Assembly (NCBI GenBank): GCA_964473485.1 | Contig: CAYYPH010000019.1 | Span: 2,668 to 66,667, forward strand | Source: an uncultured Prolixibacteraceae bacterium | GTDB lineage: Bacteria; Bacteroidota; Bacteroidia; Bacteroidales; FEN-979 | Direction: 5' to 3' | DNA length: 64,000 nt | Shown: positions 978 to 61,167 of the stretch, piece after piece | Layout: each line of letters begins with the position of its first letter | How positions within the stretch are numbered: position 1 is the first letter of the stretch | Translations under genes and position numbers: made by a program | Notes under the pieces: model-generated | The model's database searches: none | Told to the model about the DNA's origin: nothing | The model's input: the letters and a program-made list of their open reading frames with translations, nothing else

Positions 978-1056
978 AAATTGAAAACGGAAAATTGAAA
1001 ACGGAATTTTGAATTTTGACATTTGACATTTGAATTTTGAATTTTGAATTTTGAAC
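972..1056. repeat. Mosaic tandem array: (GAAAATTGAAAACG)x2 then (TTTGAAT/TTTGACA)x7
   Basis: Read directly. It begins at the ROK stop codon (AAATTGA). It shares ATTGAAAATTGAAAACGGAAAA with 54931.. and TTTTGAATTTTGACATTTG with 35710.. and 60379... Confidence 0.9.
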
Positions 1057-3631: not shown

Positions 3632-3686
3632 CCAGGTCCATCCCGGATGATCCGGTCATAAAAACAGCATGCCGGGAGCCTGGTGA

Positions 3687-5102
3687 CTATTCGACCACCA
3701 GTTTGATCGCCTTGCTGCAGCCGGAATCACCGGTGAATTCAAGAAAATAGATGCCGCTCTGGAGTGGGGCGGTCAGATGCAGCGCACCATTCGCCGGCGG
3801 AAGGTCAAGCGCCCTGGCATCGAGGGTCCTTCCGGAAACATCCGTGATCCTGAGCTTACCCGTCCAGGCCCTTTCCGCATTCAACTCCACCCTGAAGGTA
3901 TCGCCCCGGCCAACCGGCTGCGGGACCATCCTTACATCCATGCAACCGCCGACAGGCTGGCTCTGTGACGGACCACCCGAGGTGATCAGCCCCACGGGGA
4001 CGCGGATGAACTTGGGCCGGTACGTGTCGGCATCGAGCCGGTCGGTCCAGATATCCTTGCATTGCGAAGGACAAACGTGAGGCGCCAGGGTATCCACCCG
4101 GTCGTTCACGTTATAGCAGACGAGAAGTTCATCGTTCTCAATATTCCAGGGATGAGCCTGGGCGTTGTAGGTGAGCAGGTATTCCCCGTTGAATTTGCTC
4201 TCCTCGGTGTAAAGCAGGGTTTTCCCGGTAAAGGGGCCCCACGGATGATCGCCGGAATAGGAATAGATCTCACGGCCAAGACCGCACTCCAGGTAGCCGT
4301 TCTCCTGGGTGACCAGGTAATACCTGCTGTTGCGCTTGAAAACACTGAAACCCGGCGATACCGGGTCGTTGCAGATCTTTTGGGCCTGTACCGGATTGGC
4401 CGACCACCCGGTGCCGGTATAAAATTCCCAGGGCAGGAACGGGTTGGAGAGGTCGCACCGGGCCAGCACCGGTTCCCATACGATCCAGTTCAGCTTGTTC
4501 CCGTAGATATAAAGCCGGTTCTCAGCGCTGTCGACCAGCACGGCCCGTCCCATGAAATGGTCGGTCCCCACCTGGATCACTTGCTGCATCGGCACCTGGT
4601 GCAGTTCAGGATAGGTAAGCCGGGCGATATAGCAACCCTCGTAATCGAGGTTTGAGCTTTTGTAGCGTTCCTGGAAAATGTAAACCGTGTCGTTGTAAAC
4701 ATAGCCGTGCCCGGGCCAGAAAATGGAGGTATCGTTCGGCCGCAGTTTGAAGGTGGTCCGGTTGACCCCGGTCTGGGTGGTGTCGAGGATGGTCCTGAAT
4801 ACGGCAGGGTTAACGGAATCCTGCACCATGAAACAGTTACGCACCTGGAACAGGCAGGGCAGGGTGTTGTTCGTGGTGTTCACGTTTACCGTGTAACTGT
4901 CGCCGAAAAGCCAAATCACCCGGCCGTCGGGCAGCGGCACCGAGATGGTTGCATCGCCGGCGGTCCATCCGCCGCTGTTGAGCCTGAAATAGCCGGTGTA
5001 CACGCTGTCGAACCGCGCTTCGCCCATGGGTTGTGCAAAACAGTTCAATGAGATCACCAGCAGGATGGTCAGTAATACGGGTAGCTTTTTCTGCATTTTC
5101 AT
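3687..5102 (-). CDS. DUF4185-like secreted protein with T9SS C-terminal sorting domain
   Basis: The start is trimmed to MKMQKKLPVLLTILLVISLNCFAQP (signal peptide). DGRVIWLFGDSYTV and YRPKFIRVPV are paralogous to 1073..2200. The C-terminus ...LQSGIYFLEFTGDSGCSKAIKLVVE is Por-tail-like. Confidence 0.6.
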   Translation of the reverse strand: MKMQKKLPVLLTILLVISLNCFAQPMGEARFDSVYTGYFRLNSGGWTAGDATISVPLPDGRVIWLFGDSYTVNVNTTNNTLPCLFQVRNCFMVQDSVNPAVFRTILDTTQTGVNRTTFKLRPNDTSIFWPGHGYVYNDTVYIFQERYKSSNLDYEGCYIARLTYPELHQVPMQQVIQVGTDHFMGRAVLVDSAENRLYIYGNKLNWIVWEPVLARCDLSNPFLPWEFYTGTGWSANPVQAQKICNDPVSPGFSVFKRNSRYYLVTQENGYLECGLGREIYSYSGDHPWGPFTGKTLLYTEESKFNGEYLLTYNAQAHPWNIENDELLVCYNVNDRVDTLAPHVCPSQCKDIWTDRLDADTYRPKFIRVPVGLITSGGPSQSQPVGGCMDVRMVPQPVGRGDTFRVELNAERAWTGKLRITDVSGRTLDARALDLPPANGALHLTAPLQSGIYFLEFTGDSGCSKAIKLVVE

Positions 5103-5143
5103 ACGTTGAGAAACAGGGGTTAAATGTACAAGTTCCATTGATT

Positions 5144-9504: not shown

Positions 9505-11817
9505 ATGACCACTTTGAAGCAAGCCATCGCGAGGATCCCTTTTTGGGCTTACTTGGTTGTACTTGTATCAATGTTTGTGAACACCGTGTACTTTGTATTT
9601 ACATACGCGGCAATCGTTGTTTATTCAGAATCTCCCGTCACTCCGGTGTTTTCCTGGGCGGTGTACCTTACAACCATTCTGTTTGGTACCGGCAGTCTCT
9701 ATCTTCTATACAAAAAGCCTGGTGATCGCCCGGTCAGGATTTTCTTTTTCTACGTACAGTTTTTTGTAATTATGATCAATGCAGGAAACCTTTTTGTGCT
9801 GAATCCTTTGATCAATATTGTGAATATTGTCTTCCATACAACCTGTTTTATTGGTTCAGTTCTAATCAGTTTCCATCTCGTATTTCCGAAAACGGTAAAA
9901 TATTACAACACATTAAGGAGCGTTTCATGGATCATCTATGTATTTACCACAATAGTTGTTAGTTGTTATTCAGCAAGTTATATTTACTCTGTTTATAATG
10001 AATTAACGCCTGACTCCTTTTTTTTCGTTGCTGAACGAATCGCTTTATGGTGGCTCACATTAACTTATATAGGTGCCTTGGCAATTGCTGTTTACCAGTA
10101 TGCTACTTTGAAAGACACACTCTTAAAAAACCAGGTGTTCATTGTCTGTATAGGATCTCTTTTCGGATTAATCACACCAATGTGCCTGGCTTTGTTCTAT
10201 GATTTTATCCTTCCTTTAACTTTTAAAAATCCCAATCCAATTGTTATTTCCCAAGGTATTTGCAGTTTAATCACCATCTGCTGCATCCTCACCGCCATCT
10301 TCCGTTACCGCATCTGGGATATCGAGGTCGTCATCCGGAAAGCCTTGCTGTACCTGGGAGCCACCGCCATCATCATCTTGTCGTACCTCTTCCTGGTCTG
10401 GCTCATTGATCAGTTCACGGCCGGAGCCACCGATCTGATCCGCTTTGCCGCCCTGGGCATTTCCGTAATCCTCTTCCTCGTTCTCCGCGACCGCATCCAG
10501 CGGCTGATCGACCGGATCTTTCACCGCGAGACCTACGACTCTGCCACGGTAGTATCCGATTTTGAAGCAAAACTGGCGGGGATTTACAGGTTTGATGAGT
10601 TGAAACAGAAAATTGTCCAGAGTCTTGATGAGATCTTCCATTTTAAATCCTTTGTTTTTAACCTGAAGAAAAACAACCAGATCTATGAACCCGCTTATGC
10701 TTTAGGGATCGATGATACGGACATTCCAGCAGAATATGAGATCTCCGCCGAAATTGAAGACAGACTCAGGAAATCAAAGGTCTTTTCCCCTCAAGAGTTG
10801 AATGTGACGTCCCCTGTGCTTGAAACGATCAAAGGAGACCTCATTGTTCCGATGGTATCCGAAGGTCAACCGGAAGGGTTTTTTATCTGCGGACAGAAAA
10901 AGTCGGAGCGGATCTATTCCCGGCAGGACATCAACGTGCTCTCATTGCTTGCGAGAAGAGTGGTTGCCATGCTTCATACCGCCAGCCTTTACCAGAAAGA
11001 TCTTGACCGCCAACTGATGCTTGAACGTGAACGCGCCCGCATCGCCCAGGACATGCACGACGACATCGGCGCGGGACTGACAAAAATCGCCATGATCAGC
11101 GAAGCGCCTGTTCAAGTTCCCGGTCAGCAGTCACTTACTGCAAACTTACTCTCAGATCGCTTGAAGAAGATTGCAACATCTTCCCGCGACATGATCTCCC
11201 GCCTGAACGTGATCGTCTGGGCGCTGAATCCCCGGTATGACAATCTTGAAAGCCTGGTCAGCTATCTTCGGAGATATTTCGGGGAATACCTTGAAAACTT
11301 CGGAATTCAATTCAGCACCGGATTTCTGGAAGAGGTACCCGAACGTGCCATCACACCCGACACCCGGCGTAACATCTTCTATATCATTCAGGAGGCCATT
11401 CACAATGCGGTCAAGCACAGCGGCTGCACAGAGATCGGCCTTGACATTGCATTCTACTCCGGGTCGCCGCACAATTCCACGGGCTTTAAACTTCAATCCC
11501 CCCTTGAAACCAATGACTGCACTTCCCTGCCACGCCATAATACCAATGACCTCATGCCACCACTGCATCACACGACCGGTGACTCCCTCACACTACAACC
11601 TCCTCGCCCTGAAGGAGAGGGGAAGAAGGAAAAGAGGCGCTATACCTTAACCTTCATCATCATCGACAACGGTAAGGGATTTGACCAGGTCAAAACCGGT
11701 TCCGGCGGAAACGGTCTGCTGAACATGAAAAAGCGGGCGGAGGAACTGTCGGGGACTTGCGAAGTTCAAAGTTCACCGGGGAAAGGGACCAAAATTACAG
11801 TACGGGTAAACATTTAA
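9505..11817 (+). CDS. Sensor histidine kinase HK1: multi-pass membrane, GAF-like, HisKA_3, HATPase_c (no PDZ)
   Basis: The start is trimmed to MTTLKQAIARIPFWAYL by analogy with the paralog N-termini. H-box ERERARIAQDMHDDIGAGL, N-box EAIHNAVKHS, G-box DNGKGFD...GNGLLNMKKR. Has a long insertion between the N and G1 boxes. Confidence 0.85.
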   Translation: MTTLKQAIARIPFWAYLVVLVSMFVNTVYFVFTYAAIVVYSESPVTPVFSWAVYLTTILFGTGSLYLLYKKPGDRPVRIFFFYVQFFVIMINAGNLFVLNPLINIVNIVFHTTCFIGSVLISFHLVFPKTVKYYNTLRSVSWIIYVFTTIVVSCYSASYIYSVYNELTPDSFFFVAERIALWWLTLTYIGALAIAVYQYATLKDTLLKNQVFIVCIGSLFGLITPMCLALFYDFILPLTFKNPNPIVISQGICSLITICCILTAIFRYRIWDIEVVIRKALLYLGATAIIILSYLFLVWLIDQFTAGATDLIRFAALGISVILFLVLRDRIQRLIDRIFHRETYDSATVVSDFEAKLAGIYRFDELKQKIVQSLDEIFHFKSFVFNLKKNNQIYEPAYALGIDDTDIPAEYEISAEIEDRLRKSKVFSPQELNVTSPVLETIKGDLIVPMVSEGQPEGFFICGQKKSERIYSRQDINVLSLLARRVVAMLHTASLYQKDLDRQLMLERERARIAQDMHDDIGAGLTKIAMISEAPVQVPGQQSLTANLLSDRLKKIATSSRDMISRLNVIVWALNPRYDNLESLVSYLRRYFGEYLENFGIQFSTGFLEEVPERAITPDTRRNIFYIIQEAIHNAVKHSGCTEIGLDIAFYSGSPHNSTGFKLQSPLETNDCTSLPRHNTNDLMPPLHHTTGDSLTLQPPRPEGEGKKEKRRYTLTFIIIDNGKGFDQVKTGSGGNGLLNMKKRAEELSGTCEVQSSPGKGTKITVRVNI

Positions 11818-11961: not shown

Positions 11962-12603
11962 ATGCCAGGATCATCAGGTAAAATCAAAATCATGATCGTC
12001 GAAGACGACCGGGAGATGCGGGAAGGGCTGGAACTGATCGTCCGCTCAAATCCGGCCCTGGAATGCATTGGATCCTGTTCCTCGGGAGAGGAGGCGGTCG
12101 AAACCATTCCGGATCATGTACCCGACATTGTTCTGATGGACATTCACCTTCCCGGGCTCTCGGGAATTGATTGCGTAAAGCAGTTAAAACCACTCATGCC
12201 GTTCACACAGTTCATGATGTGCACGGTATACGAAGATAATGAAAACGTCTTTGATTCACTCTGCGCGGGAGCTACCGGCTACCTGTTGAAAAACAGCCCT
12301 CCGTCAAAAATAACGGAGGCCATCGTCGACCTCTACCAGGGCGGTTCTCCCATGTCTTCAGTCATCGCGCGGAAAGTGATCCAGACCTTTATTCCCGCCC
12401 CTGAAAAGAGCAGCGAAATTGAAAAACTGACCGTTCGGGAGCGGGAACTGCTCGACCTGCTTTCGAAAGGATATCGTTACAAAGAGATCGCCGACAGGCT
12501 TGGCATCAGCTTTGAGACCGTCCGCACACACATCCACAACATTTACGAGAAACTGCATGTACAGTCGAGGACCGAGGCGCTGAACAAGATCTATCCCAGA
12601 TAA
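11962..12603 (+). CDS. NarL/FixJ (LuxR-type HTH) response regulator RR1
   Basis: Receiver IMIVEDDREMREGL...[12 protein letters not shown] and HTH LTVRERELLDLLSKGYRYKEIADRLGISFETVRTHIHNIYEKL. The start could instead be the ATG at 11992 if the adjacent -7 box is the promoter. Confidence 0.9.
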   Translation: MPGSSGKIKIMIVEDDREMREGLELIVRSNPALECIGSCSSGEEAVETIPDHVPDIVLMDIHLPGLSGIDCVKQLKPLMPFTQFMMCTVYEDNENVFDSLCAGATGYLLKNSPPSKITEAIVDLYQGGSPMSSVIARKVIQTFIPAPEKSSEIEKLTVRERELLDLLSKGYRYKEIADRLGISFETVRTHIHNIYEKLHVQSRTEALNKIYPR

Positions 12604-12613
12604 AAACCATCCC

Positions 12614-12667
12614 CTACTGCCTACTGCAAACTGCCTACTGCAAACTACCAACTGCAAACTGCCAACT
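12614..12667. repeat. Heptamer array WACTGCM x ~7 (CTACTGCCTACTGCAAACTGCC...)
   Basis: Read directly. Lies between the RR1 stop and the HK2 start. Confidence 0.9.
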
Positions 12668-15207: not shown

Positions 15208-15861
15208 ATGTCAGAAACATTCAAATTACCCGGTAATCCCATCCGGATTGCGGTGGTGGAAGACGATAAAATGGTCAGGGAAGTGCTGGAGATTCTTCTC
15301 AGCGGTTCTCCCGGGTTTACGTGTGCCGCAGCCTATGAAGACGGTGAATCCGCTCTCGCCGGCCTCCCGGAAGTGAGTCCCAACGTTGTATTAATGGACA
15401 TCCACCTGCCGGGCATCAGCGGTATCGAATGCATAACAAGGCTTAAAGCGATGAATCTGTCAATGTTGTTCATCATGCTGACCATCTTTGAAGATTCCGA
15501 TGCCGTGTTTCATTCGCTGGCTGCAGGTGCATCCGGGTACCTGGTTAAACAAACCCCGCCGGCAAAATTGCTTGAAGCCATCCAGGATGTTTACCTTGGC
15601 GGTTCGCCCATGTCGCGGGAAATTGCCCGAAAAGTAGTTCAATCCTTCCAACACCCGGTTACAGCAGCCGATCCTGATATCAACCTGACCAAACGGGAAG
15701 ACGAAATCCTGTTATACCTTGTAAAAGGGATGCTGTACAAGGAGATAGCCGCTTTATTGTCCATCAGCGTGGAAACCGTCCGAACACACCTCCGTCATAT
15801 CTACGAAAAACTCCAGGTACGTACACGCAGCGAGGCCATCGTAAAGTATCTTACAAAATAA
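15208..15861 (+). CDS. NarL/FixJ (LuxR-type HTH) response regulator RR2
   Basis: [14 protein letters not shown]...[12 protein letters not shown]; [46 protein letters not shown]. Confidence 0.9.
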
Positions 15862-16036
15862 GTTTTAAGTTTTCAGTTCACAGTTTCCAGTTTAACCAAC
15901 TACCGACTGACATGCGGACTAGTGAGCAAGTGGACAAGCGGACAAGTTACCTTAACTGCAAACTGCCTAATGCCTACTGTCTATTGCCTACTGCCAATTG
16001 CCTATTGCCTATTGCCTATTGCCTTCTGCCTACTTG
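15862..16036. repeat. Mosaic array: (AGTTTTM)n, (GACAAGYG)n, (TGCCTAY)n
   Basis: Read directly. It starts at the RR2 stop codon (AAATAAGTTTTAAGTTTT) and ends with TGCCTATTGCCTATTGCCTATTGCCTTCTGCCTAC. Confidence 0.9.
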
Positions 16037-16084
16037 TAACACCAAATGGGGATTGACTTACTCGTTTCTGTAATCGTACATTTG
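16037..16084 (+). promoter_or_regulatory. Box C operator-promoter, copy 2 (upstream of Ycf48-like copy 1)
   Basis: TAACACCAAATGGGGATTGAC, then TACATTTG at 16077, 40 nt from the hexamer. Confidence 0.45.
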
Positions 16085-16177: not shown

Positions 16178-18238
16178 ATGAAAAAAATCCATCTTGTAAT
16201 GTTAACCTTGATTATTGTAAACGGAACAATGGCCCAATGGACCTGGCAAAATCCTTTGCCAACAGGATACCGGCATAATTCCGTTTATTTCACCGATGTC
16301 AATACAGGGTATGCAGCAAGTTCATATGGGACCATTCTAAAGACAATTGACGGGGGCATAACCTGGAGCGCATTGTCAACTGGAACAACCCAGAAATTAA
16401 ATTCCATTTATTTCACGGATGCAAATACGGGCTATGCAGTTGGGGACAATGGAACAATCATAAAAACCTTAGATGGCGGTACAACGTGGACACTATTACC
16501 CAGCGGAAAGACTACTTATTTAACCTCAATTTACTTTCCCGATGCCAATACAGGGTATGTTGTGGGTGCATCCGATGGCAGTGGAATGGCAACCATTCTG
16601 AAAACTACCGATGGTGGCTCAAATTGGACTTCTTTTAATGGACCTGCCGGTTGGTTGTATTCGGTTTTTTTTCTCGATGCCAATACAGGCTATGCGGCAG
16701 GTAATAATGGGATCATCATTAAAACAATAAATGGTGGCGCAACATGGGGTGACATATCTTATGGAACGGGCAGCACGGTACATAATTCGATTTATTTCAC
16801 AGATACCTATACTGGTTATTCGGTAGGAACCGGCGGATTAGTTTTGAAAACCACCGATGGCGGTATAAACTGGACGCCACTATCAACCGGAGCGACCGGT
16901 GTTCTGTGTTCGATTTTCTTTAACAGTTCCAGCACCGGTTATATTGTCGGAGACGACGGAACCATTATAAAGACCATTGATGCCGGTACAACCTGGACGA
17001 CTTTGTCAAGCGGAACAACATATGATTTGTCTACGGTTCACTTTCCGGATGCCACAACCGGATACGCATTAGGCGCCCATGGAATCATAATAAAAACCAT
17101 AGATGGTGGCATGACCTGGTCTGAATTATCAAGCGGGTCATCGTATTTTTTTACATCTGTTTACTTTCCTGACAAAAATACGGGCTATGTGGCAGGTCGC
17201 GATGGAATCATTTTCAAAACCAATAACGGAGGTACACATTGGACTCCTTTATCAAGCGGAACGACCCAATGGTTGAATTCGGTTGCTTTTACCGATAGCC
17301 TGACCGGTTATGTAGTAGGTAATAATGGAACCATTTTAAAATCAATCGATGGCGGCATAAACTGGGTTCCTTTATCAAGCGGAACTACCAACTACATGAA
17401 TTCAGTCGACTTTCCCAATGCCAGCATCGGCTATGTTGTGGGATCCGGCGGAATCATTTTGAAAACCATTGATGGAGGCACAAATTGGAATACACTAACA
17501 AGCGGAACGACCGAATGGTTGAATTCAGTTTTTTTTATTGATGTCAATACAGGTTTTGCAGTGGGTAACATGGGAATCATCATTAAAACCATTAATGGAG
17601 GAACAACATGGAGTACTGTCTTTAGCGGCACACCGGGAGACTATTTAAATTCGGTTTACTTTCCCGATGCTAATACAGGTTATGCGGTCGGGAATGATCA
17701 TGTTGTTTTAAAAACCGTCGATGGAGGCACAAATTGGACTATTATTTACCTTGGTATGAACAGCGCTACATTTAACTCAGTTTACTTTACCGATGCTGAT
17801 AGTGGTTATATTGTTGGGGACGATGCCTTCCTCATGAAAACAACTGACGGAGGCATGACCTGGGAATGGCTGTATCTTGGAGCCAGTGAACTATATTCTA
17901 TTTTCTTTACTGATGCCAGCACTAGTTATATTGTTGGTTCTTTTGGTACTATAATGAAAACAACAAATGGAGGGGGCTACCCAGTATGGGTTAGTGAATA
18001 TTCTCATATACCATCCTCCTTGAAGATTTACCCGAATCCATCTTTCGATAAAATCACCATCGAAACATCTGCTGAAGGCCATCTATCGATTCAAAATCTA
18101 AGCTGCCAGGAACTTATTAACCAATACATAGCAAAAAAAGTCACTCAGATTGATATAACAACCTTACCTGCGGGGATTTATATAATACGGGTTACAAATA
18201 ATAAGTCAGTGCAGGTGGGGAAATTCATTAAACAATAA
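16178..18238 (+). CDS. Ycf48/BNR-like beta-propeller repeat protein (about 13-14 blades) with T9SS tail, copy 1
   Basis: Signal peptide, then a tandem ~45-aa unit ...GTIxKTxDGGxxWxxLxSGTTxxLNSIYFxDxNTGYxVG. Tail YPNPSFDKITIET...LPAGIYIIRV...GKFIKQ. AT-rich coding sequence. Confidence 0.75.
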   Translation: MKKIHLVMLTLIIVNGTMAQWTWQNPLPTGYRHNSVYFTDVNTGYAASSYGTILKTIDGGITWSALSTGTTQKLNSIYFTDANTGYAVGDNGTIIKTLDGGTTWTLLPSGKTTYLTSIYFPDANTGYVVGASDGSGMATILKTTDGGSNWTSFNGPAGWLYSVFFLDANTGYAAGNNGIIIKTINGGATWGDISYGTGSTVHNSIYFTDTYTGYSVGTGGLVLKTTDGGINWTPLSTGATGVLCSIFFNSSSTGYIVGDDGTIIKTIDAGTTWTTLSSGTTYDLSTVHFPDATTGYALGAHGIIIKTIDGGMTWSELSSGSSYFFTSVYFPDKNTGYVAGRDGIIFKTNNGGTHWTPLSSGTTQWLNSVAFTDSLTGYVVGNNGTILKSIDGGINWVPLSSGTTNYMNSVDFPNASIGYVVGSGGIILKTIDGGTNWNTLTSGTTEWLNSVFFIDVNTGFAVGNMGIIIKTINGGTTWSTVFSGTPGDYLNSVYFPDANTGYAVGNDHVVLKTVDGGTNWTIIYLGMNSATFNSVYFTDADSGYIVGDDAFLMKTTDGGMTWEWLYLGASELYSIFFTDASTSYIVGSFGTIMKTTNGGGYPVWVSEYSHIPSSLKIYPNPSFDKITIETSAEGHLSIQNLSCQELINQYIAKKVTQIDITTLPAGIYIIRVTNNKSVQVGKFIKQ

Positions 18239-20796: not shown

Positions 20797-20846
20797 AATT
20801 ACTACTTTTTGGTGATACCGCCTGCATTTTTCCCGGAATAACTTTG
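20797..20846 (+). promoter_or_regulatory. Box B operator-promoter, copy 1 (upstream of FISUMP gene)
   Basis: AATTACTACTTTTTGGTGATACC, then TAACTTTG at 20839, 39 nt from TACTAC. ATG at 20861. Confidence 0.55.
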
Positions 20847-22207: not shown

Positions 22208-22259
22208 AAATTACTACTTTTTGGTGATTGAATCCGGCAAGCGGTTGGTGATACCTTTG
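22208..22259 (+). promoter_or_regulatory. Box B operator-promoter, copy 2 (upstream of GH-like propeller/M28)
   Basis: AAATTACTACTTTTTGGTGATTGA, then TACCTTTG at 22252, 40 nt from TACTAC. ATG at 22280. Confidence 0.55.
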
Positions 22260-28303: not shown

Positions 28304-28353
28304 AAATACTACTTTTTGGTGATACCTTTTCTCTTGCGATCATTGTAATTTAG
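28304..28353 (+). promoter_or_regulatory. Box B operator-promoter, copy 3 (upstream of RR3)
   Basis: AAATACTACTTTTTGGTGATACC, then TAATTTAG at 28346 (39 nt; an imperfect -7 box). ATG at 28371. Confidence 0.45.
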
Positions 28354-28370
28354 CTGTTAATTAATATCGG

Positions 28371-29024
28371 ATGAAATACACGGGAAATGAATATACAGAA
28401 CCTATCCGGATTGCCCTGGTAGAAGATGATAAAACCGTCAGGGAAGGATTGCAGATGCTCCTCAATGGCTCCCCCGGATTCACCTGCGTGGCTGCATACA
28501 ACAGCGGGGAAGATGCCCTTGCAGGGATTCCTGATATGCTGCCGGAAGTGACGCTTATGGACATCAACCTTCCCGGCATCAACGGTATCGAATGTATACT
28601 TAAGCTCAAGGAACAGCAATTACCCATTCTCTTCATCATGCTGACGGTTTTCGAAGACGCCGACGCCATCTTCCGGTCGCTTTCAGCAGGTGCATGCGGA
28701 TATTTACTCAAACATACCCCACCCGCAAAACTGCTGGAAGCCATCCAGGATGTCTACCGGGGCGGTTCTCCCATGTCGGGGGAGATCGCACGAAAGGTGG
28801 TTCAGTCATTTCAGCAGGTACCCGCAAAAAACCATGACCAGGCCAACCTGACGAAACGGGAAGAGGAGATCCTCAACCTCCTGTCGCAAGGATATTTTTA
28901 CAAAGAGATCGCCCATTCTCTTTCCATCAGCGTCGAAACCGTCCGCACCCACATTCGCAACATCTACGAAAAGCTACAGGTCAGGACCCGGACGGAGGCA
29001 ATTCTGAAGTACTTGGGAAAGTAG
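28371..29024 (+). CDS. NarL/FixJ (LuxR-type HTH) response regulator RR3
   Basis: IALVEDDKTVREGL...TLMDINLPGING; [46 protein letters not shown]. By eye about 70% identical to RR2. Confidence 0.9.
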   Translation: MKYTGNEYTEPIRIALVEDDKTVREGLQMLLNGSPGFTCVAAYNSGEDALAGIPDMLPEVTLMDINLPGINGIECILKLKEQQLPILFIMLTVFEDADAIFRSLSAGACGYLLKHTPPAKLLEAIQDVYRGGSPMSGEIARKVVQSFQQVPAKNHDQANLTKREEEILNLLSQGYFYKEIAHSLSISVETVRTHIRNIYEKLQVRTRTEAILKYLGK

Positions 29025-29064
29025 GCAGTAGGCAGTTTCAAGTTGGCAGTTGCCAGTTGGCAGT
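29021..29064. repeat. Heptamer array GTAGGCAG/AGTTGGCAG (reverse complement of the 12614 unit family)
   Basis: Read directly. The RR3 stop TAG is inside the first unit (AAGTAGGCAGTAGGCAG). Confidence 0.9.
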
Positions 29065-29096
29065 CGATCGTAAACGGGAGTCACCAGAAAAAATAT

Positions 29097-30463: not shown

Positions 30464-30513
30464 AAATACTACTAATTGGTGATTGATTCCCCCTCGTCAC
30501 AAAAGTAACTTTG
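30464..30513 (+). promoter_or_regulatory. Box B operator-promoter, copy 4 (upstream of Ycf48-like copy 2)
   Basis: AAATACTACTAATTGGTGATTGA, then TAACTTTG at 30506, 39 nt from TACTAC. Confidence 0.5.
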
Positions 30514-30669
30514 TTCGTCGGTTATCAACTGCACTGCCCGGATACCTGATAAGACTGATCATCCACCGGACACCGCGCTGATCGATATTCCCCAATGGCG
30601 ACAGGACATCATTTGTCAAAATTTCATAAGACCATGAAAAATATTGGTTCGAAGAAACACAAACCGAAT

Positions 30670-32736
30670 ATGAAAAGAATTAACCTCCTGATGATGGCAC
30701 TCTGGCTGACCGGGGTGAATGCCATCGCCCAATGGCAAACGGTCAATCCGCTGCCGACCGGGCAAAGTTTATACGGCCAATGCTTTACGGATGAAAACAC
30801 CGGGTACCTGGTTGGTTACAACGGGGTTATCTTTAAAACTGTGGATGGTGGCGACAGTTGGAAAAGCAAGGAATCAGCAACCACCGAAGTGCTCTGCAGT
30901 GTCTCCTTCCCCGATGCACTCAACGGCTACGCAGCCGGCGAGCACGGAACCATCGTAAAAACGACCGATGGCGGGAATACCTGGGTTTCGCTTAACACGG
31001 GTTCATACGTCGATCTTTCATCCATATGTTTTACGGATGCAACTACCGGTTATGCAGCCGGGTTTGGAGGGACCATCCTGAAAACCACCGACGGGGGCGT
31101 CACCTGGCTGTCCAAACAGGCCGGGACCACGCGGTGGCTCCGTTCCGTTTGCTTTCCTACCGCGTCGACTGGCTATGCAGTGGGCGACAGCGGAACCATC
31201 CTCAAGACCGTCAACGGAGGAAACAGCTGGAATCTGCTCTCTTCCAACACCACGCATCGCCTGTATTCTGTTGACTTTGTGGATGAAATCCGGGGATTTG
31301 CAGTGGGGGGCACCGAGGCGGCCGCATTGCAGGGGGTCATCCTCCGGACCACGGATGGCGGGCAGTCGTGGGGAATCTATCCAACGTCATTCAACCAGGT
31401 ACTGACATCGGTCTCCTTTCCTTCTGCAAATACCGCTTATGCCGTCGGTTTCAACGGTAAAATGGTCAGAACCACCGATGCTGGAGTGACCTGGAATGCC
31501 GTTTCCACCGGGAATCCGAATCAGTTGAACTCAGTCTTATTCACCAGCGCATCAAACGGCAGGATTATTGGCAATGACGGTACCATAATCTATACAGCCA
31601 ACGGCGGAGATGCATGGACACGGCAAGGAGCTGTCACCGCAAAGGGACTCCGGGATCTCTGCTTCCCCACTCCATCGGTGGGGTATACCGCCGGCCTTTC
31701 GGGAACCATTCTTAAAACGACCGATGGCGGAAACAGCTGGAACCGCCTGGAGTCGGGCACTCCGGCCGACTTCTTTGCCATCGATTTCCCGGAACCGGGC
31801 GTTGGGTATGTTACAGGCTGGAGTGGCAGGATCTTAAAAACCACCGACGGAGGATTAACGTGGGTCTCATTGCCCGTTGGGCCTCAGCCGCCCCTGTTTT
31901 GCGTCCGTTTCCAGGATGTTAACACCGGTTATGCCGCCGGGATGAATGGAGTCATCCTGAAGACCACGAATGGAGGGACGAGCTGGACCCCACTGGCCAC
32001 CGGGGTCACGGAATGGATCTTCACCCTCTGTTTCCCTGATCCGGCCACCGGGTATGCCTTTACCTATGATGGATCGGTACTAAAGACGACCGATAGCGGC
32101 GTAACCTGGAGCAAGATCTACGCTTCCGAAGACCTGAGCCTGATCTCGGCAGATTTCACCGATACCGCCACCGGTTGTGCGGTGGGCACCAACGGTACCA
32201 TCCTCAGGACCACCGACGGAGGTGCGACCTGGACCAGCATACCATCGGGAACCAATTACAGGCTGATGGATGTGCAGTTCCTGGATGACGACCGGGGTTT
32301 TATCTCGGGTGATCACGGAATGATCTTAAAGACTGTGAACGGAGGACTATCCTGGTCAAGCCAGAACTCAGGAACCAGCTATGATCTTCCGGCTGTTTGT
32401 TTTTATGATGCCAACCACGGATGTGCCGTGGGTGACTTTGGCACGATCCTGACCGGGCTGGATTACGGGGTCGGCAATTACGAGAATGCGCAACAGGCCG
32501 GTCTTTTCATCTTCCCCAATCCTGCCACTGATTGGGTATCCATCGGAGCCCCGGATGCATCCGTTTCATTCCCGGCTGAAGTATCCATTTTCGGGATCGA
32601 CGGGAAGGAAGTGATCCGATGGGAAACCAGTAAAAGGACCGTTAAAACCGATGTCCGGACATTACCCCCCGGGCTTTATTTCGTTCGATACCGGGCTGAT
32701 GACAGGGCCTTTACGGGAAAATTCGTCAGGCCTTGA
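30670..32736 (+). CDS. Ycf48/BNR-like beta-propeller repeat protein with T9SS tail, copy 2
   Basis: The start is trimmed to MKRINLLMMALWLTGVNAIAQW (ATGs at 30595 and 30634 are also possible). Same GTIxKTTDGGxxW repeat as 16178..18238 but GC-rich. Tail FPNPATDWVSIG...LPPGLYFVRY...GKFVRP. Confidence 0.75.
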   Translation: MKRINLLMMALWLTGVNAIAQWQTVNPLPTGQSLYGQCFTDENTGYLVGYNGVIFKTVDGGDSWKSKESATTEVLCSVSFPDALNGYAAGEHGTIVKTTDGGNTWVSLNTGSYVDLSSICFTDATTGYAAGFGGTILKTTDGGVTWLSKQAGTTRWLRSVCFPTASTGYAVGDSGTILKTVNGGNSWNLLSSNTTHRLYSVDFVDEIRGFAVGGTEAAALQGVILRTTDGGQSWGIYPTSFNQVLTSVSFPSANTAYAVGFNGKMVRTTDAGVTWNAVSTGNPNQLNSVLFTSASNGRIIGNDGTIIYTANGGDAWTRQGAVTAKGLRDLCFPTPSVGYTAGLSGTILKTTDGGNSWNRLESGTPADFFAIDFPEPGVGYVTGWSGRILKTTDGGLTWVSLPVGPQPPLFCVRFQDVNTGYAAGMNGVILKTTNGGTSWTPLATGVTEWIFTLCFPDPATGYAFTYDGSVLKTTDSGVTWSKIYASEDLSLISADFTDTATGCAVGTNGTILRTTDGGATWTSIPSGTNYRLMDVQFLDDDRGFISGDHGMILKTVNGGLSWSSQNSGTSYDLPAVCFYDANHGCAVGDFGTILTGLDYGVGNYENAQQAGLFIFPNPATDWVSIGAPDASVSFPAEVSIFGIDGKEVIRWETSKRTVKTDVRTLPPGLYFVRYRADDRAFTGKFVRP

Positions 32737-34734: not shown

Positions 34735-35511
34735 ATGCCCGGCTTTCTCTTTCACGACATCATATTCGGCCCTGTGCGCAGCAGGCGCCTCGGCCTTTCA
34801 TTAGGCATCAACCTGCTGCCCACCCATACAAAACTTTGCTCCTTCAATTGCATCTATTGTGAATGCGGCTGGACCCCGGAACAGACAGGAGATCATCATC
34901 TGCCATCCAGGGAGGAGATCGCCTCATTCCTTGAAATGCGCCTTCGCGAACTGGCTGCTGAATCCTACTTTCCTGACGCGCTGACCTACGCCGGCAATGG
35001 CGAACCAACGCTCCATCCCGACTTTGAAGGGATCGTGGATGACACCATCGCACTGCGCGACCGCTACACCCCCGGGTCAAAAGTCTCCGTGCTTTCAAAT
35101 TCAAGCAGGATCCATAAAGAAGATGTATTCCGCGCCCTGCTTAAACTCGATAACAACATTTTAAAGCTGGATGCGGGCAGTCCCGAAATGTTCCGGTTGA
35201 TCAACCAGCCCGCTGCCTCGGTCGACTTTGAACAGATGATCGGCAACCTTTGCAGGTTCAACGGAAAACTGATCATTCAAAGCCTGTTCCTGAGGGGTAG
35301 CTACAACGGCCAAAAGGTCGACAATACCATGCCGGAAGAGGTAGACCTGTGGATCGGCCATCTGTTGAAGATACGCCCACAACTGGTTATGATCTACCCC
35401 ATCGCCCGCGAAACGCCGGCACACGACCTGGAAAAGATCCCGCTGGATGAGTTGAACCACATCGCCGCACAAGTCGAAGCCGCTGGGATCAGGGCACAGG
35501 TATATCCGTGA
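34735..35511 (+). CDS. Radical SAM protein
   Basis: The start is trimmed to the ATG at 34735 (MPGFLFHDIIFGPVRSRRLG). Has the CxxxCxxC cluster CSFNCIYC. The subfamily is not assignable by eye. Confidence 0.8.
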   Translation: MPGFLFHDIIFGPVRSRRLGLSLGINLLPTHTKLCSFNCIYCECGWTPEQTGDHHLPSREEIASFLEMRLRELAAESYFPDALTYAGNGEPTLHPDFEGIVDDTIALRDRYTPGSKVSVLSNSSRIHKEDVFRALLKLDNNILKLDAGSPEMFRLINQPAASVDFEQMIGNLCRFNGKLIIQSLFLRGSYNGQKVDNTMPEEVDLWIGHLLKIRPQLVMIYPIARETPAHDLEKIPLDELNHIAAQVEAAGIRAQVYP

Positions 35512-35747
35512 CGCGGGACGCGTGACTGGTGACGAAATCGTGACGCGTGACGCGTGACAGGGGATAAAATCGTGACGGGTGACGAAATCGTGACAGGTGA
35601 CGCGTGACTGGTGACGGGAAAAGGATTGACTGAATGATTGAATGATTGATTGATTGATTGATTGGCTGAATCTTTTCCCTATTGCCTATTGCCTAATGCC
35701 TATTACCTGATTTTGAATTTTGACATTTGAACTTTGAATTTTGACTT
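35507..35747. repeat. 240-bp mosaic array: (GTGACGC/GTGACGG)n, (GATTGAAT/GATT)n, (TGCCTAT)n, (TTTGAAT/TTTGACA)n
   Basis: Read directly. The radical SAM stop TGA is part of the first GTGACGC unit. The array ends 3 nt before the ATG of 35751. Confidence 0.95.
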
Positions 35748-53279: not shown

Positions 53280-54026
53280 TTGAGGATCAGACCAGCAAAA
53301 CCGGTCGTTTCTGAATACTTTTCCGATAAAACTCTCAGACAGGCCATAAAAAGTATTTTCGGGTACAAACCCGGAAATATCTTTTTGTACCACCAGGCCT
53401 TCCTGCACCGCTCAGCCAGCCAGGAATCTGGTAACGGCATCAGGATCAACAACGAACGTCTTGAATTCCTTGGCGACGCCATCCTCGATGCCGTTTCAGC
53501 CGACTACCTCTTCAAAACCTTCCCAACGCGCGACGAAGGATTCCTGACCGAGATGCGGTCGAAGATCGTCAGCCGCAACATGCTGAACAAACTCAGCCAG
53601 AAACTTGGCATCGATAAGCTGGTGCTGGTCGACAACGCCTCATCCGGAGCCTTCAAGTCGTTCAGAGGCGATGCCTTCGAAGCCCTCATCGGGGCGATGT
53701 ACCTCGACAAGGGGTATGAATTCACCCGCAAGGTCCTGCTTGAACGAATCATCCGCCAGTATTTCGACATGGATGACCTTGTAAACCAGGAGGTCAATTT
53801 TAAAAGCCGTATCATCGAATGGGCCCAGCGCGAAAAAAAACAGGTGCAGTTCATCGTGGCCGAAGAGGTGGGATCAGGGTACAAAAAACAGTATATCGTC
53901 GACCTGGTGGTCGACGGAACCACCATTGCCTCCGGCAGGGATTACTCCATCAAAGGAGCGGAACAAAACAGCAGTGAAAAAGCCTGGCAAAAAATAAATG
54001 GAGAAACCATTGACCTTAAAGGCTAA
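53280..54026 (+). CDS. rnc: Ribonuclease III
   Basis: Signature ERLEFLGDAIL and a C-terminal dsRBD-like region. The start is TTG per the ORF track and there is no upstream in-frame ATG. Confidence 0.9.
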   Translation: MRIRPAKPVVSEYFSDKTLRQAIKSIFGYKPGNIFLYHQAFLHRSASQESGNGIRINNERLEFLGDAILDAVSADYLFKTFPTRDEGFLTEMRSKIVSRNMLNKLSQKLGIDKLVLVDNASSGAFKSFRGDAFEALIGAMYLDKGYEFTRKVLLERIIRQYFDMDDLVNQEVNFKSRIIEWAQREKKQVQFIVAEEVGSGYKKQYIVDLVVDGTTIASGRDYSIKGAEQNSSEKAWQKINGETIDLKG

Positions 54027-54538: not shown

Positions 54539-54889
54539 ATGCTCGAAGAATTGAAAAAATCAATCGACAAAGGTCTTGACTATGCATTCATGACCGGCGA
54601 AAAACTGGCCCAGGCCGCCAAAGACATGGCCAAGGAAAACAAGCTTACCAAGGAAGAAGCGAAAAAACTGCTGGACCACCTGAAGGCCAAATCGGATGAA
54701 ACCCGCAAAAACATTGAAAACGAACTCCAGGAAGCCATCAGGAACACCCTGAAAAAGATGAATGTCGCCACCCTCGAGGACCTGAAAAAAATGGAAGCCC
54801 GCATTAAAAAACTGGAAAGCGCCAAAAAACCACCCGCAAAGCCAAAAGCGAAACCGGCGGGAGCACCTGTGGCCAAGGTGAAGAAGTAG
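54539..54889 (+). CDS. Coiled-coil, Lys-rich small protein (phasin-like)
   Basis: 116 aa, predicted helical/charged (KEEAKKLLDHLKAKSDETRKNIENELQE), with tail AKKPPAKPKAKPAGAPVAKVKK. Its stop codon is the first base triplet of a tandem-repeat array. Confidence 0.5.
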   Translation: MLEELKKSIDKGLDYAFMTGEKLAQAAKDMAKENKLTKEEAKKLLDHLKAKSDETRKNIENELQEAIRNTLKKMNVATLEDLKKMEARIKKLESAKKPPAKPKAKPAGAPVAKVKK

Positions 54890-55090
54890 GAGAAGGGAGA
54901 AGGGAGAAGGGAGAAGGGAGAAGGGAGAATTGAAAATTGAAAACGGAAAACGAATTGACAATTGACAATTGACAATGGACAATTGAAAATGAATTGAAAA
55001 TTGAAAATTCACTCATTCACTCATTCACTCACTCTTTTATTTCACGCGTCACGCGTCACGATTTTTTCCCCGTCACGCGTCACGATTTTC
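54887..55090. repeat. Mosaic array, left arm of the inverted pair flanking the ubiB-like gene
   Basis: (GGAGAAG)x5, GAAAATTGAAAACGG, (ATTGACA)x4, GAAAATT, (TTCACTCA)x3, CTCTTTTATTTCAC, (GCGTCAC)n. Confidence 0.95.
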
Positions 55091-56778: not shown

Positions 56779-56783
56779 AAAAC

Positions 56784-56916
56784 CGTGACAAAATCGTGAC
56801 GGGTGAAGCGTGACGCGTGACGGGTGAAATAAAAGAGTGAGTGAATGAGTGAATGAGTGAATTTTCCGTTTTCAATTTTCAATTGTCAATTGTCAATTGT
56901 CAATTGTCAATTGTTA
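56784..56916. repeat. Mosaic array, right arm (reverse complement of the left arm)
   Basis: (GTGACNN)n, GTGAAATAAAAGAG, (TGAGTGAA)x3, TTTTCCGTTTTCAATTTTC, (AATTGTC)x5. 56824..56865 is the exact reverse complement of 55004..55045. Confidence 0.95.
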
Positions 56917-56933
56917 ATTTTTCTTTCCCGGCG

Positions 56934-59022: not shown

Positions 59023-59589
59023 ATGAAAAACGCAATGTATGGAAATGACATGGACCGGATGCCCGACTGGGCATTCAAAACCATGGCCTTCTTGTTCCGG
59101 GTCACCGACCTGTTCAAATCACCGGCCGGGAAACTCAATCCCTTTAACATTCAAAAGGGCCAGACCGTGGTCGATTACGGTTCGGGAACCGGCAGGTACC
59201 TGGAACAGGCAGCGATGCTGGTCGGTCCGGGCGGAGTCGTGTACGCAGTTGACATTCAACCACTCGCAGTTGAAGCGGCAAAAAAAGTGGCCGTAAACTG
59301 CTCACTTCCCAACATCAGGCCGGTCCTCACCGACGGAAAATCTGTGAACATCCCGGATGGTTCTGCCGACATAATCTATGCCCTCGACATGTTCCACATG
59401 GTCAGTGACCACAAGGGATTCCTGGGCGAACTTAACAGGATCGCCAGACCTGGCGGCCTGTTGTTTCTTGAAGATGGTCACCAGCCGCGCGAAAGATCAA
59501 GAGAAAAAGTCGTAAATTCGGGCCAATGGGAAATCGTGGAAGAGACCAAGGGGTTTATGAAGTGCAGGAAAATCAAAATGAAAAGTTAA
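59023..59589 (+). CDS. Class I SAM-dependent methyltransferase
   Basis: Motif I VVDYGSGTGRY and DIIYALDMFH. The C-terminal codons (KIKMKS) already belong to an A-rich tandem array. Confidence 0.8.
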   Translation: MKNAMYGNDMDRMPDWAFKTMAFLFRVTDLFKSPAGKLNPFNIQKGQTVVDYGSGTGRYLEQAAMLVGPGGVVYAVDIQPLAVEAAKKVAVNCSLPNIRPVLTDGKSVNIPDGSADIIYALDMFHMVSDHKGFLGELNRIARPGGLLFLEDGHQPRERSREKVVNSGQWEIVEETKGFMKCRKIKMKS

Positions 59590-59640
59590 AAAGCAAAGTG
59601 AAAAGTCGAAAATCAAAATCAAAAATCAAAATACAAAACC
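59568..59640. repeat. A-rich degenerate tandem array (AAAATCA / GAAAAGT units)
   Basis: Read directly. It spans the last codons and the stop of the methyltransferase gene. Confidence 0.75.
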
Positions 59641-59641
59641 T

Positions 59642-60280
59642 ATGAAAATTTTGATTCTGGGGGCCACAGGGCGCACAGGCGGCAGGATCGCCACAATGGC
59701 TAACAACTCCGGCCATAAAGTAACAGCCATCGTCAGAAACCTTCAGAAAGCCACGCTGCCGTTTGTGGAGTATATGGAAGGTGCACCTGCCGACGGTGCC
59801 CTGCTCACCCGAACATTGACCGGCATCGACGCCGTGGTGGTTGCGCTGAATATCAACCGGGTATCCGATAATCCATGGGCAAAAGTAGCCTCCCCGCTCA
59901 CCCTGATCTCTGACACCGTCAGCGCGCTCATCCCGGCCATGGAACAGAACGGTGTGAAGCGGATCGTGACCATCAGCGCATCGGGGGTGGGAGATTCGTG
60001 GAGCGATATGCCGTTGGCCGGCAAACTCTTCATCCGGTATTCGAATATCTGGAAAGCCTACCTTGATCACGACCGCCAGGAGAAACTGCTTCGCTCGTCC
60101 GGCCTCGACTGGACCATCGCCCGTCCCGTCATGCTGAATGACAAACCTTCGGAAAACTACCGGACCGCAACAGGAAAAGCGCTTTCACCCTCCATCCCGC
60201 GCAATGCCGTGGCAAAATTCGTGGTCGACACACTGGAGCAGCGAACGCACATCAGGGAGATAGTGGCATTGTTTGAATGA
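59642..60280 (+). CDS. NAD(P)H-binding (atypical SDR / NmrA-like) protein
   Basis: N-terminal Rossmann motif MKILILGATGRTGGRI. The stop TGA is part of the first unit of a repeat array. Confidence 0.8.
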   Translation: MKILILGATGRTGGRIATMANNSGHKVTAIVRNLQKATLPFVEYMEGAPADGALLTRTLTGIDAVVVALNINRVSDNPWAKVASPLTLISDTVSALIPAMEQNGVKRIVTISASGVGDSWSDMPLAGKLFIRYSNIWKAYLDHDRQEKLLRSSGLDWTIARPVMLNDKPSENYRTATGKALSPSIPRNAVAKFVVDTLEQRTHIREIVALFE

Positions 60281-60416
60281 GTGATTGAGTGAATGAGTGA
60301 ATGAAAAATTGATTGAATGATTGATTGATTGATTGATCTATTTTTCCCTAATCGCTAATCCCTAATCCCCAATCCCTAATTTTGAATTTTGACATTTGCA
60401 TTTTGAATTTTGAATT
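60275..60416. repeat. Mosaic array: (GAGTGAAT)n, (GATTGAAT/GATT)n, (CCTAATC)n, (TTTGAAT/TTTGACA)n
   Basis: Read directly. It lies between the convergent SDR and tdk genes, and its module order parallels 35624..35747. Confidence 0.95.
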
Positions 60417-61005: not shown

Positions 61006-61094
61006 CCGGCAGGGGTAAAAATTGTAATTTTATGGCTGTTTTGAGACAAAGATACAACTTTTAGCGGTTCTGTAGATCGAACGGGCAGGAATGG

Positions 61095-61160
61095 GGTGAA
61101 CAGGTGAGCAGGTGAACAGGTGAACAGGTAAGCAGGTGAACAGGTGAGCGGGTGAGCAGG
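61095..61160. repeat. Octamer array (CAGGTGAA/CAGGTGAG) x ~8
   Basis: Read directly. It lies in the divergent region between tdk and 61168. Confidence 0.9.
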
Positions 61161-61167
61161 GAAACGG

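Follow-up and report, generated by a model that had tools for sequence, protein, structure and literature searches.

Short tandemly repeated repetitive (STRR) heptanucleotides were reportedly described in cyanobacteria by Mazel in 1990. Here we report on arrays that are of the same kind as STRR, heptamer long simple sequence repeats (SSRs), and TAACTGA repeats, found in a 64,000-nucleotide stretch of contig CAYYPH010000019.1 from an uncultured Prolixibacteraceae bacterium; this whole stretch is called the window below, and ten of its intergenic sites hold mosaic arrays of mainly 7- and 8-nt units that belong to one dispersed repeat family. According to Mrazek 2007, as cited in PMC4679880, heptamers are the commonest class of long SSR in most prokaryotic genomes, with slippage as the proposed cause. 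The STRR heptamers of cyanobacteria and the G-rich heptamers of Xanthomonas and Nostoc vary between close relatives (PMC4692102). TAACTGA repeats are known from Beggiatoaceae, Cyanobacteria, and five Bacteroidetes, and mixed "assemblages of heptamer repeats" were described alongside them (MacGregor 2015; PMC4679880). Heptamer mixtures occur in Gramella, Aequorivita, and Elizabethkingia; close relatives of repeat carriers have shorter spacers without repeats, and contigs ending inside repeats were noted for Elizabethkingia (PMC4679880). The TAACTGA repeats are mostly in forward orientation, often lie a few nucleotides from a start codon, and were proposed by MacGregor to have a role in binding RNA or single-stranded DNA (ssDNA) (PMC4679880).

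The window arrays share with the TAACTGA system their intergenic tandem heptamers, sense orientation, proximity to start codons, mixed units, contig breaks, and shorter, repeat-free spacers in relatives. They differ from it in using other units together with octamer and tetramer blocks, with no TAACTGA tandem in the window, and in the fixed order of several blocks across loci and species, of which we found no description in MacGregor 2015. The features of intergenic heptamer long SSRs of the STRR type are all present, namely, head-to-tail units above chance, intergenic position, dispersal, and length polymorphism. The likeness to STRR and long SSRs extends to period 7, length variation between close relatives, and slippage as a proposed cause; however, the host belongs to another phylum, and the window arrays chain several units in conserved order instead of forming single-unit runs. 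No tandem dimer of CCCCAGT, TTGGTCA, or CAACAGT (STRR1-3), or of GGGAATC or GGGGATT, was found in the window in any rotation on either strand.

Two further kinds of repeats bear comparison. Pneumococcal BOX elements have the structure boxA-(boxB)n-boxC, and their modules, like those of the BIME/REP mosaics of E. coli, are 35-60 nt long and form stem-loops. The window arrays resemble them in being intergenic and dispersed, in the fixed order of their modules, in variable internal copy number and, presumably, in being cotranscribed, which we infer here; their modules, in contrast, are runs of 7-8-nt units without a consistent folding signal or palindromic units. With phase-variable contingency loci, which are SSRs in the promoters or open reading frames (ORFs) of host-adapted pathogens, the arrays share slippage-prone repeats and copy numbers that differ between strains. 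Unlike these, they lie outside ORFs, apart from an overlap with the final codons of the preceding gene, they have housekeeping genes (pheS, thymidine kinase, and ABC1 kinase) as neighbors, and no on/off logic of reading frame or promoter spacing is evident in them.

Composition and distribution of the array family

All ten sites listed in a preliminary description of this DNA, along with every unit it had named, were recovered as tandem arrays of period 7, 8, or multiples thereof by Tandem Repeats Finder (TRF) and by direct reading of the sequence. Across 20 Markov-1 simulated windows, no period-7/8 row reached a score of at least 40, versus 18 such rows in the real window. Each array is a chain of blocks and each block consists of 2-10 head-to-tail copies of a single unit, with adjacent blocks commonly only 1-2 substitutions apart (for example, ATGGACA followed by ATTGACA, ATTGAAA, and ACGGAAA); one block has a 4-nt unit, (GATT)n.

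Different spacers carry the same segments. The 22-mer ATTGAAAATTGAAAACGGAAAA occurs exactly at 973 (plus strand), 54929 (plus strand), and 56862 (minus strand), and the 19-mer TTTTGAATTTTGACATTTG occurs exactly at 1007, 35711, and 60380, with about zero occurrences of either expected by chance. Both had been noted in the preliminary description as exact multi-unit stretches shared by three loci each, and this is confirmed at the same sites, although its coordinates were shifted by 1-4 nt. Longer matches include a 72-nt inverted pair, 94% complementary, on either side of the ABC1-kinase gene (54992-55063 and 56806-56877), and a 75-nt segment comprising a linker and two blocks that is 83% identical between 35673-35747 and 60342-60416. 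Within the 64 kb of genome examined, the same unit families are dispersed at many loci, as seen from the shared 19- and 22-mers and from further direct-repeat families. Because multi-block stretches with their nonrepeated linkers recur at unrelated spacers, and across species, in fixed order, the arrays are copies of one repeat family, as had been proposed, and not independently slipped microsatellites. The fixed order and polarity in which segments and linkers recur therefore indicate segment copying rather than reinvention at each site.

The ten arrays are given below with their neighboring genes; the single number by which an array is cited in the text, where one is used, stands in brackets.

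971-1055, plus strand: (ATTGAAA)2-ACGGAAA-ATTGAAA-ACGGAA, then about 7 TTTTGAA/TTTGACA units (TRF, sequence), between a ROK-family gene upstream and a DUF5005 gene downstream (ATG at 1073); the ROK stop codon (975-977; TGA in ATTGAAA) lies within the first unit, and 17 nt separate the array end from the ATG.
12614-12667, plus strand: alternating ACTGCCT/ACTGCAA, 7.4 copies (TRF period 7 and 14, TRF span 12616-12667), 3' of a LuxR-type response-regulator gene at 11962-12603 (Pfam).
15859-16032, plus strand: TAAGTTT x3, CAGTTYN, (GGACAAGY)4, and (TGCCTAY)10 (TRF, sequence), following the response-regulator gene at 15208-15861, whose stop codon TAA (15859-15861) is part of the first unit.
29019-29066, minus strand: (GTAGGCA/GTTGGCA)6, the reverse complement of the TGCCTAC class (TRF span 29019-29064), following the third paralogous response-regulator gene (28371-29024), whose stop codon TAG (29022-29024; in GTAGGCA) lies within the first unit.
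35507-35746, plus strand, the focal array (35507): about 14 GTGACGC-type units interrupted by GAAATC/AAAATC, then GGGAAAAG, (GATTGAAT/GATT)n, TCTTTTCC, (CTATTGC)4, and (TTTTGAA/TTTGACA)5 (TRF span 35507-35744); it occupies the whole 239-nt spacer from a radical-SAM gene to a gene for a 134-aa protein, with the stop codon TGA (35509-35511; in GTGACGC) within the first unit, and stops 4-6 nt short of the ATG at 35751.
54887-55085, plus strand (54887): (GGAGAAG)6, then ATTGAAA/ACGGAAA/ATTGACA/ATGGACA blocks, (ATTCACTC)3, the linker ACTCTTTTATTTCAC, and (GCGTCAC)n-GATTTT (TRF span 54889-55060, sequence), between a phasin-like gene and the ABC1-kinase gene.
56779-56925, minus strand (56784): (ATTGACA)5-(ATTGAAA)2-ACGGAAA-(ATTCACTC)3-linker-(SCGTCAC)4 in minus-strand reading (TRF span 56779-56921, sequence), between the convergent ABC1-kinase and pheS genes.
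59569-59638, plus strand (59568): A-rich AAAATCA, AAAGTGA, and AAAAGTC variants (TRF), between a methyltransferase gene and an NAD(P)-binding protein gene; the upstream ORF runs 21 nt into the array, and the ATG (59642) is 3 nt away.
60268-60416, plus strand (60275): (GAATGAGT/GATTGAAT/GATT)n, ATCTATTTTTCC, (CTAATCC)5, and (TTTTGAA/TTTGACA/TTTGCAT)5 (TRF, sequence), where the genes for the NAD(P)-binding protein and thymidine kinase converge; its block order equals that of the second half of the focal array.
61092-61165, plus strand (61095): octamers (GGTGAACA/GGTGAGCA)8 (TRF period 8 and 24, span 61095-61160), in the spacer from which thymidine kinase (minus strand) and a gene for a 398-aa protein (ATG 61168) diverge, 7 nt from that ATG.

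On the curated gene map, the window is 91% coding, and the arrays take up 1,018 of its 5,129 intergenic bp (20%) and are found in 10 of the 31 spacers measuring 52 nt or more. The noncoding 9% of the window holds 84% of all TRF-detected repeat bp, and the TRF matches in coding DNA (200 bp) are mainly longer-period repeats rather than period-7/8 arrays. Repeats with a 123-nt period at 16178-18238 and 30595-32736 represent BNR/YCF48-like propeller blades of proteins tailed with a type IX secretion system (T9SS) sorting domain; such repeats belong to normal coding sequence and have nothing to do with the heptamer arrays. The host is a member of the Bacteroidota: several window proteins carry a T9SS C-terminal sorting domain, and PheS has its closest match (76%) in a Bacteroidota metagenome-assembled genome (MAG), with Marinilabiliaceae/Prolixibacteraceae at ~70-74%; exact-protein look-ups gave no match for PheS or for the 295-aa radical-SAM ORF.

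The genes on either side are co-directional at seven of the array sites, convergent at two, and divergent at one. Of the nine arrays located 3' of a gene, eight start at or before its stop codon, and four arrays terminate 3-7 nt from the neighboring gene. The arrays typically span from the stop codon to shortly before the next start and thus fill spacers rather than sitting mainly at 3' ends; the earlier statement that they are mostly at 3' ends or between convergent genes therefore does not stand, while the divergent site at 61095 that it singled out does.

The TGCCTAC/ACTGCAA unit class follows all three paralogous LuxR-type regulator genes (12616-12646, 15955-16046, and 29020-29050): the units of 12614-12667 reappear in direct orientation at 15955-16046 and inverted at 29020-29050. 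The third array is thus inverted despite the same orientation of its gene, and 29019-29066 forms an inverted pair, 84% complementary, with 12616-12646. Elsewhere, rnc, the gene for RNase III (53280-54026), lies ~1 kb upstream of the 72-nt complementary arms that bracket the ABC1-kinase gene. These arms, if on one transcript, would pair as a long duplex of the kind that RNase III typically cleaves; this proximity may be a coincidence.

Both the accessory and the housekeeping halves of the window contain arrays, as originally stated, which corresponds to a strain-specific island (5136-34695, ~29.5 kb) and the conserved part. Two conspecific contigs (L171 and L172) join the homologue of 3677-5135 straight to 34696. 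The island opens with an AAA_14/DUF4143 ATPase gene, contains four paralogous ~790-aa HisKA_3 kinases and three LuxR-type response regulators, and also encodes T9SS-tailed BNR, Kelch, subtilase, and M28 proteins. Recombination via arrays at the island edges was considered and rejected, as the boundaries (about 5136 and 34695) do not match array positions. A 23-nt motif, AATTACTACTTTTTGGTGATACC, occurs in four copies with 74-96% identity (20797-20819, 22209-22231, 28304-28326, and 30464-30486), each ~50-110 nt upstream of a gene start within the island, and may be a shared promoter or operator of paralogous cassettes.

Block order and strand polarity

Scanning metagenomes with the exact 22-mer yielded 71 stretches, representing 58 nonredundant contexts, many of which are full mosaics occupying an entire spacer. 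At one of these loci (L136) the ROK gene is 82.5% identical to that of the window, so that the locus comes from another species. The blocks follow a common order: GGACGAAGAG, then ATGGACA/ATTGACA, ATTGAAA, ACGGAAA, ATTTGAG/ATGTGCT, YTTGARC, TTTTCCC, CTAATSS/TGCCTAT, and TTTTGAA/TTTGACA, with TCAGTCA/TCACTCA followed by GCGTCAC as an alternative ending. Relative to the 22-mer as an anchor, units of the ATGGACA/ATTGACA/GGACGAAGA group lay on the 5' side in 49 cases versus 4, and units of the other eight classes lay on the 3' side without exception (157/157). Tested per array, the order held at 22:2 on the 5' side (p = 4e-5) and at 41:0 on the 3' side (p = 9e-13).

The A-rich strand, defined by taking the 22-mer as plus, was sense with respect to co-directional neighbors 17 times and antisense 3 times (p = 0.003), and the ATTGAAA/ACGGAAA module accordingly shows the forward orientation described for TAACTGA repeats (17:3 co-directional sense). 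Over all gene contacts of this strand, 61 were sense and 15 antisense. Lone 22-mers at metagenome loci frequently stood directly 3' of a stop codon or 0-10 nt before an ATG. Blocks other than the A-rich module occurred in both orientations relative to genes.

At six JAEEG*/JAEIGA* metagenome contigs (L097, L101, L114, L117, L137, and L156), lone 22-mers adjoin hairpins of the form GTAGAGACGCG...CGCGTCTC(TAC). These hairpins look like a separate REP-like family, presumably of Bacteroidota genomes.

A limited literature search found no description of conserved block order, of polarity across species, or of within-species presence/absence for heptamer arrays, and searching for the unit strings returned only unrelated matches (e.g., a Fis binding site and 2A peptide constructs). 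Relative to the literature found, the fixed multi-block order and polarity across loci and species, and the presence or absence of an array within a species in a near-identical background, would therefore appear to be new.

Variation within and between species

At least 15 contigs from ENA, JGI, and Logan assemblies, all made independently, encode an ABC1-kinase protein that is identical at every residue, and the conspecific contigs have about 94-99.6% nucleotide identity to the window. Arrays 35507, 56784, 59568, 60275, and 61095 were reproduced in independent same-species ENA and JGI assemblies from different samples, which disposes of the concern, raised in the preliminary description, that the arrays might be assembly artefacts. 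The comparison of array lengths that it had proposed also proved informative, since all five arrays carried indels of whole units between assemblies, mostly multiples of 4, 7, or 8 nt (one was 13 nt), between near-identical flanks. The focal array was present in four independent assemblies and varied only in its GATT/GATTGAAT block (+8, +4, and -4 nt). At 56784, conspecific contigs differed in the copy numbers of ATTGTCA (x5/x4/x2), TTTTCAA (x2/x6), and GAGTGAAT (x3/x4). A 13-nt deletion was found at 59568 in L081, indels of +/-8 and +/-4 nt at 60275 in conspecific contigs together with a unit replacement in L082, and the loss of 24 nt (3 units) at 61095, also in L082. Whole units are gained and lost between conspecific populations, as slipped-strand mispairing would produce. 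Furthermore, 12 short-read (Logan) contigs (L084-L090, L173-L180) start or end inside two arrays, six in 56784 and six in 35507, the latter all beginning within the last block of the array; these two arrays are systematic breakpoints of short-read metagenome assembly.

Presence and absence of a whole mosaic were seen in the phasin-ABC1 spacer, which measures 71 nt in 9 of 10 conspecific contigs, where it consists of (GGAGAAG)3 and unique sequence, and 239 nt in the window. The remaining contig, L090, has the long form of the window over the 113 nt of this spacer that it covers. Samples that contain this species include ERZ15185028, JGI 3300022663, and SRR12133403, and the last of these carries the long allele. 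The extra ~170-nt mosaic at 54887 stands in a near-identical background, with 0-5 mismatches per 200 nt in each flank. Its gain replaced ~35 nt by ~200 nt and was not a clean insertion, and no target-site duplication was present at this only filled/empty pair (n = 1). Within the window, this mosaic is best matched (94%) by the inverted array that lies 1.7 kb downstream.

Other species keep the gene order but not the ABC1-pheS spacer. It is 1 nt long in L094 and L095 (78% protein identity), holds an unrelated pair of inverted octamer arrays in L091 (84% ABC1 identity), and in L092 and L093 (80%) contains the ATTGACA/ATTGAAA/ACGGAAA...TCAGTCA family in the opposite orientation. The L091 pair (11649-11765) consists of (GGTAGCGA)3 and an inverted copy, (CTACCTCG)3, that flank a core of ~60 nt, and could fold into a long hairpin where the two genes converge; further inverted arrays, these of heptamers, are found in L091 at 1282-1317 and 1354-1403, and GTCACGC runs are present in both L091 and L094. 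The flipped spacer of L092 and the inverted array behind the third regulator gene indicate that arrays flip in place. As arrays are lost, gained, replaced, or flipped at orthologous spacers, no particular gene depends on its array, and no locus-specific function is indicated.

Arrays of period 7/8 with different units were found at 8 of 80 unrelated Bacteroidota loci and are sporadic yet widespread across this phylum. Examples in unrelated Bacteroidota MAGs are L022 (9810-10004), L076 (4083-4283), L011 (4853-4941), and L023 (12740-12793 and 16799-16852); the arrays include (TCCGAAAA)24 ending at a pheS start, (GAAGATT/AATTGAG)n, and (TGGATAAC)n at two loci.

Origin and possible roles of the arrays

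We think it probable that the arrays are a self-propagating, hypermutable, slippage-prone satellite that is cotranscribed with its neighbors, has its orientation filtered by selection, and lacks a locus-specific function. New arrays would be seeded from existing ones by ectopic recombination or template switching, without a transposase, and slippage would drive their later turnover at the site. Since they occupy spacers from stop to start, the arrays are probably transcribed as 3' untranslated regions, intercistronic RNA, or 5' leaders, and selection acting on this RNA would decide which orientation survives. Translation initiation in Bacteroidia proceeds without a Shine-Dalgarno sequence and is tuned by mRNA structure and upstream nucleotides (PMC6847099), with which an A-rich, low-complexity leader would be compatible. 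The arrays may also incidentally alter spacer length and the leaders of adjacent genes.

Several points weigh against the satellite. The unit vocabulary, and even the exact 22-mer, is common to species whose orthologues are only ~80% identical; neutral spacer DNA should be scrambled at that distance, so that constraint or an active drive is needed and slippage with occasional recombination would not suffice, which keeps alive the two alternatives of a reader protein and of an element mobilized in trans. The single gain is a change from ~35 nt to ~200 nt with a donor only 94% identical. The orientation bias could be attributable to the replication strand instead of transcription, and transcription of the arrays is deduced from their position. 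The excess of stop codons on the sense strand is weak (7.2 versus 4.9 per 100 nt, p = 0.06); a role as an all-frame stop pad was rejected, as the count of sense-strand stop triplets (62 versus 42, p = 0.06) was driven by two arrays.

Of the alternatives, independent slippage microsatellites in each spacer, or assembly artefacts, are the least credible, having been refuted by the junctions that loci have in common and by the independent assemblies. Copy-number variation does show slippage at work, and short-read assemblers do break at the arrays; however, loci share exact 19-22-mers that cross from one unit into another as well as multi-block segments of 72-75 nt that include linkers, 21 arrays keep to one block order, and five arrays recur in ENA and JGI assemblies made independently. 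Terminators or insulators between adjacent genes, which the preliminary description had offered as a candidate, are also very unlikely. The positions at gene ends and between convergent genes would suit this role, as would the long hairpin that the inverted octamers of L091 can form between ABC1 and pheS and the terminator-like score of a GCGTCAC block followed by GATTTTT at 55044. Yet folding z-scores against dinucleotide shuffles lay between -2 and +2, near 0, on both strands for 9 of the 10 arrays, and only the GTGACGC part of 35507 reached z = -4.2, because of its ACGCGT palindromes. The hairpin-plus-T scan for intrinsic terminators gave no excess over shuffles and a single weak match within an array, at 55044, and hairpins are impossible from direct repeats. 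In addition, arrays also stand directly upstream of start codons and in one divergent spacer, and their C/G composition is not consistently of the Rho-utilization type, the C-rich, G-poor character of the sense strand varying from array to array when the units are read directly.

Other functional classes were sought with similar outcomes. Rfam 15 gave no match in the window at the gathering score, and the contiguous 7-8-mers without spacers are not a CRISPR array, which has 25-40-nt repeats with unique spacers. Sigma-70-like promoters in (ATTGACA)n were rejected, as these matches arise because TTGACA recurs every 7 nt; the promoter consensus of Bacteroidota differs from that of sigma-70, and several arrays are too near the ATG to contain a promoter. 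Four matches of the 19-mer to viral contigs were chance matches in AT-rich coding DNA and not arrays, and a link to phages was likewise dismissed.

A non-autonomous mobile element of the BOX/BIME type, with modules in a defined order (A to K) and mobilized by an enzyme whose gene lies elsewhere in the genome, would account for the module order and polarity being fixed at unrelated loci and in different species, for the ~170-nt mosaic present or absent in a near-identical background, for the same module family being flipped at an orthologous spacer, and for a conservation of vocabulary beyond neutral expectation. We nevertheless regard it as quite unlikely. Terminal inverted repeats are absent: between the 45-nt ends of an array, exact inverted matches never exceed 6 nt; the one pair available has no target-site duplication, and the gain there replaced flanking bases. 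Array ends are ragged and usually merge into a stop codon, and the subset of modules varies between arrays. No transposase, recombinase, or reverse transcriptase was matched among the window genes scanned against Pfam, although a partner may lie elsewhere in the genome. In the form of a classical transposon, the mobile element suggested at the outset thus finds no support.

Somewhat less improbable, though still doubtful, is a functional cis element in RNA or ssDNA, a platform that an abundant single-strand-binding protein, for instance of the cold-shock-domain, S1-like, or RRM type, would read seven nucleotides at a time. This protein would set the translation or stability of the flanking cistrons in a phylum without Shine-Dalgarno recognition, with copy number as the tuning variable. 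The sense polarity of the A-rich module (17 versus 3, and 61 versus 15 contacts) speaks for such a reader, as do the vocabulary kept at ~80% protein identity and the several arrays and lone metagenome 22-mers that end 0-7 nt before a start codon. MacGregor's like proposal for TAACTGA, in which context CspB binds one heptamer per protein (PMC4679880), and the dependence of initiation in Bacteroidia on leader structure and upstream nucleotides (PMC6847099) point in the same direction. Against it, near-identical strains differ in having or lacking an array, and at orthologous spacers arrays have been lost, exchanged, or inverted. Blocks such as the TGCCTAC class take either orientation behind genes of one kind, being direct behind two of the paralogous regulator genes but inverted behind the third, and some arrays lie between convergent genes. 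Moreover, units ranging from GC-rich GTGACGC to AAAATCA would be hard for one protein to read, and no consistent low-structure signature emerged versus shuffles.

A further and wider possibility, which we put forward only tentatively and hold to be unlikely, is that the arrays represent a previously unrecognized, lineage-spanning modular "heptamer mosaic element" of the Bacteroidota, with a conserved grammar, a polarity fixed relative to transcription, and a vocabulary held constant across species by a dedicated process. This process might lie in an enzyme that generates or spreads 7-nt units by copying or in an RNA-reading protein that controls translation in a phylum lacking Shine-Dalgarno recognition.

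The arrays matter in practice, as they break short-read metagenome assemblies, and their length variation could mark strains in metagenomes. They can also provide the upstream gene with its stop codon or move that codon. Natural alleles in near-identical strains, that is, the ~170-nt mosaic present or absent and the five arrays with unit differences, are usable for comparisons of expression or in reporters, and strand polarity relative to the flanking genes offers a measurable handle. Knowledge of tandem heptamers in cyanobacteria goes back to 1990, with Beggiatoaceae, Xanthomonas, and a few Bacteroidetes following later; the conserved block grammar and the 22-mer held in common between species point to constraint or molecular drive. 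If a dedicated process does maintain this vocabulary, it would also bear on the recurrence of heptamers in Cyanobacteria, Beggiatoaceae, and Bacteroidota.

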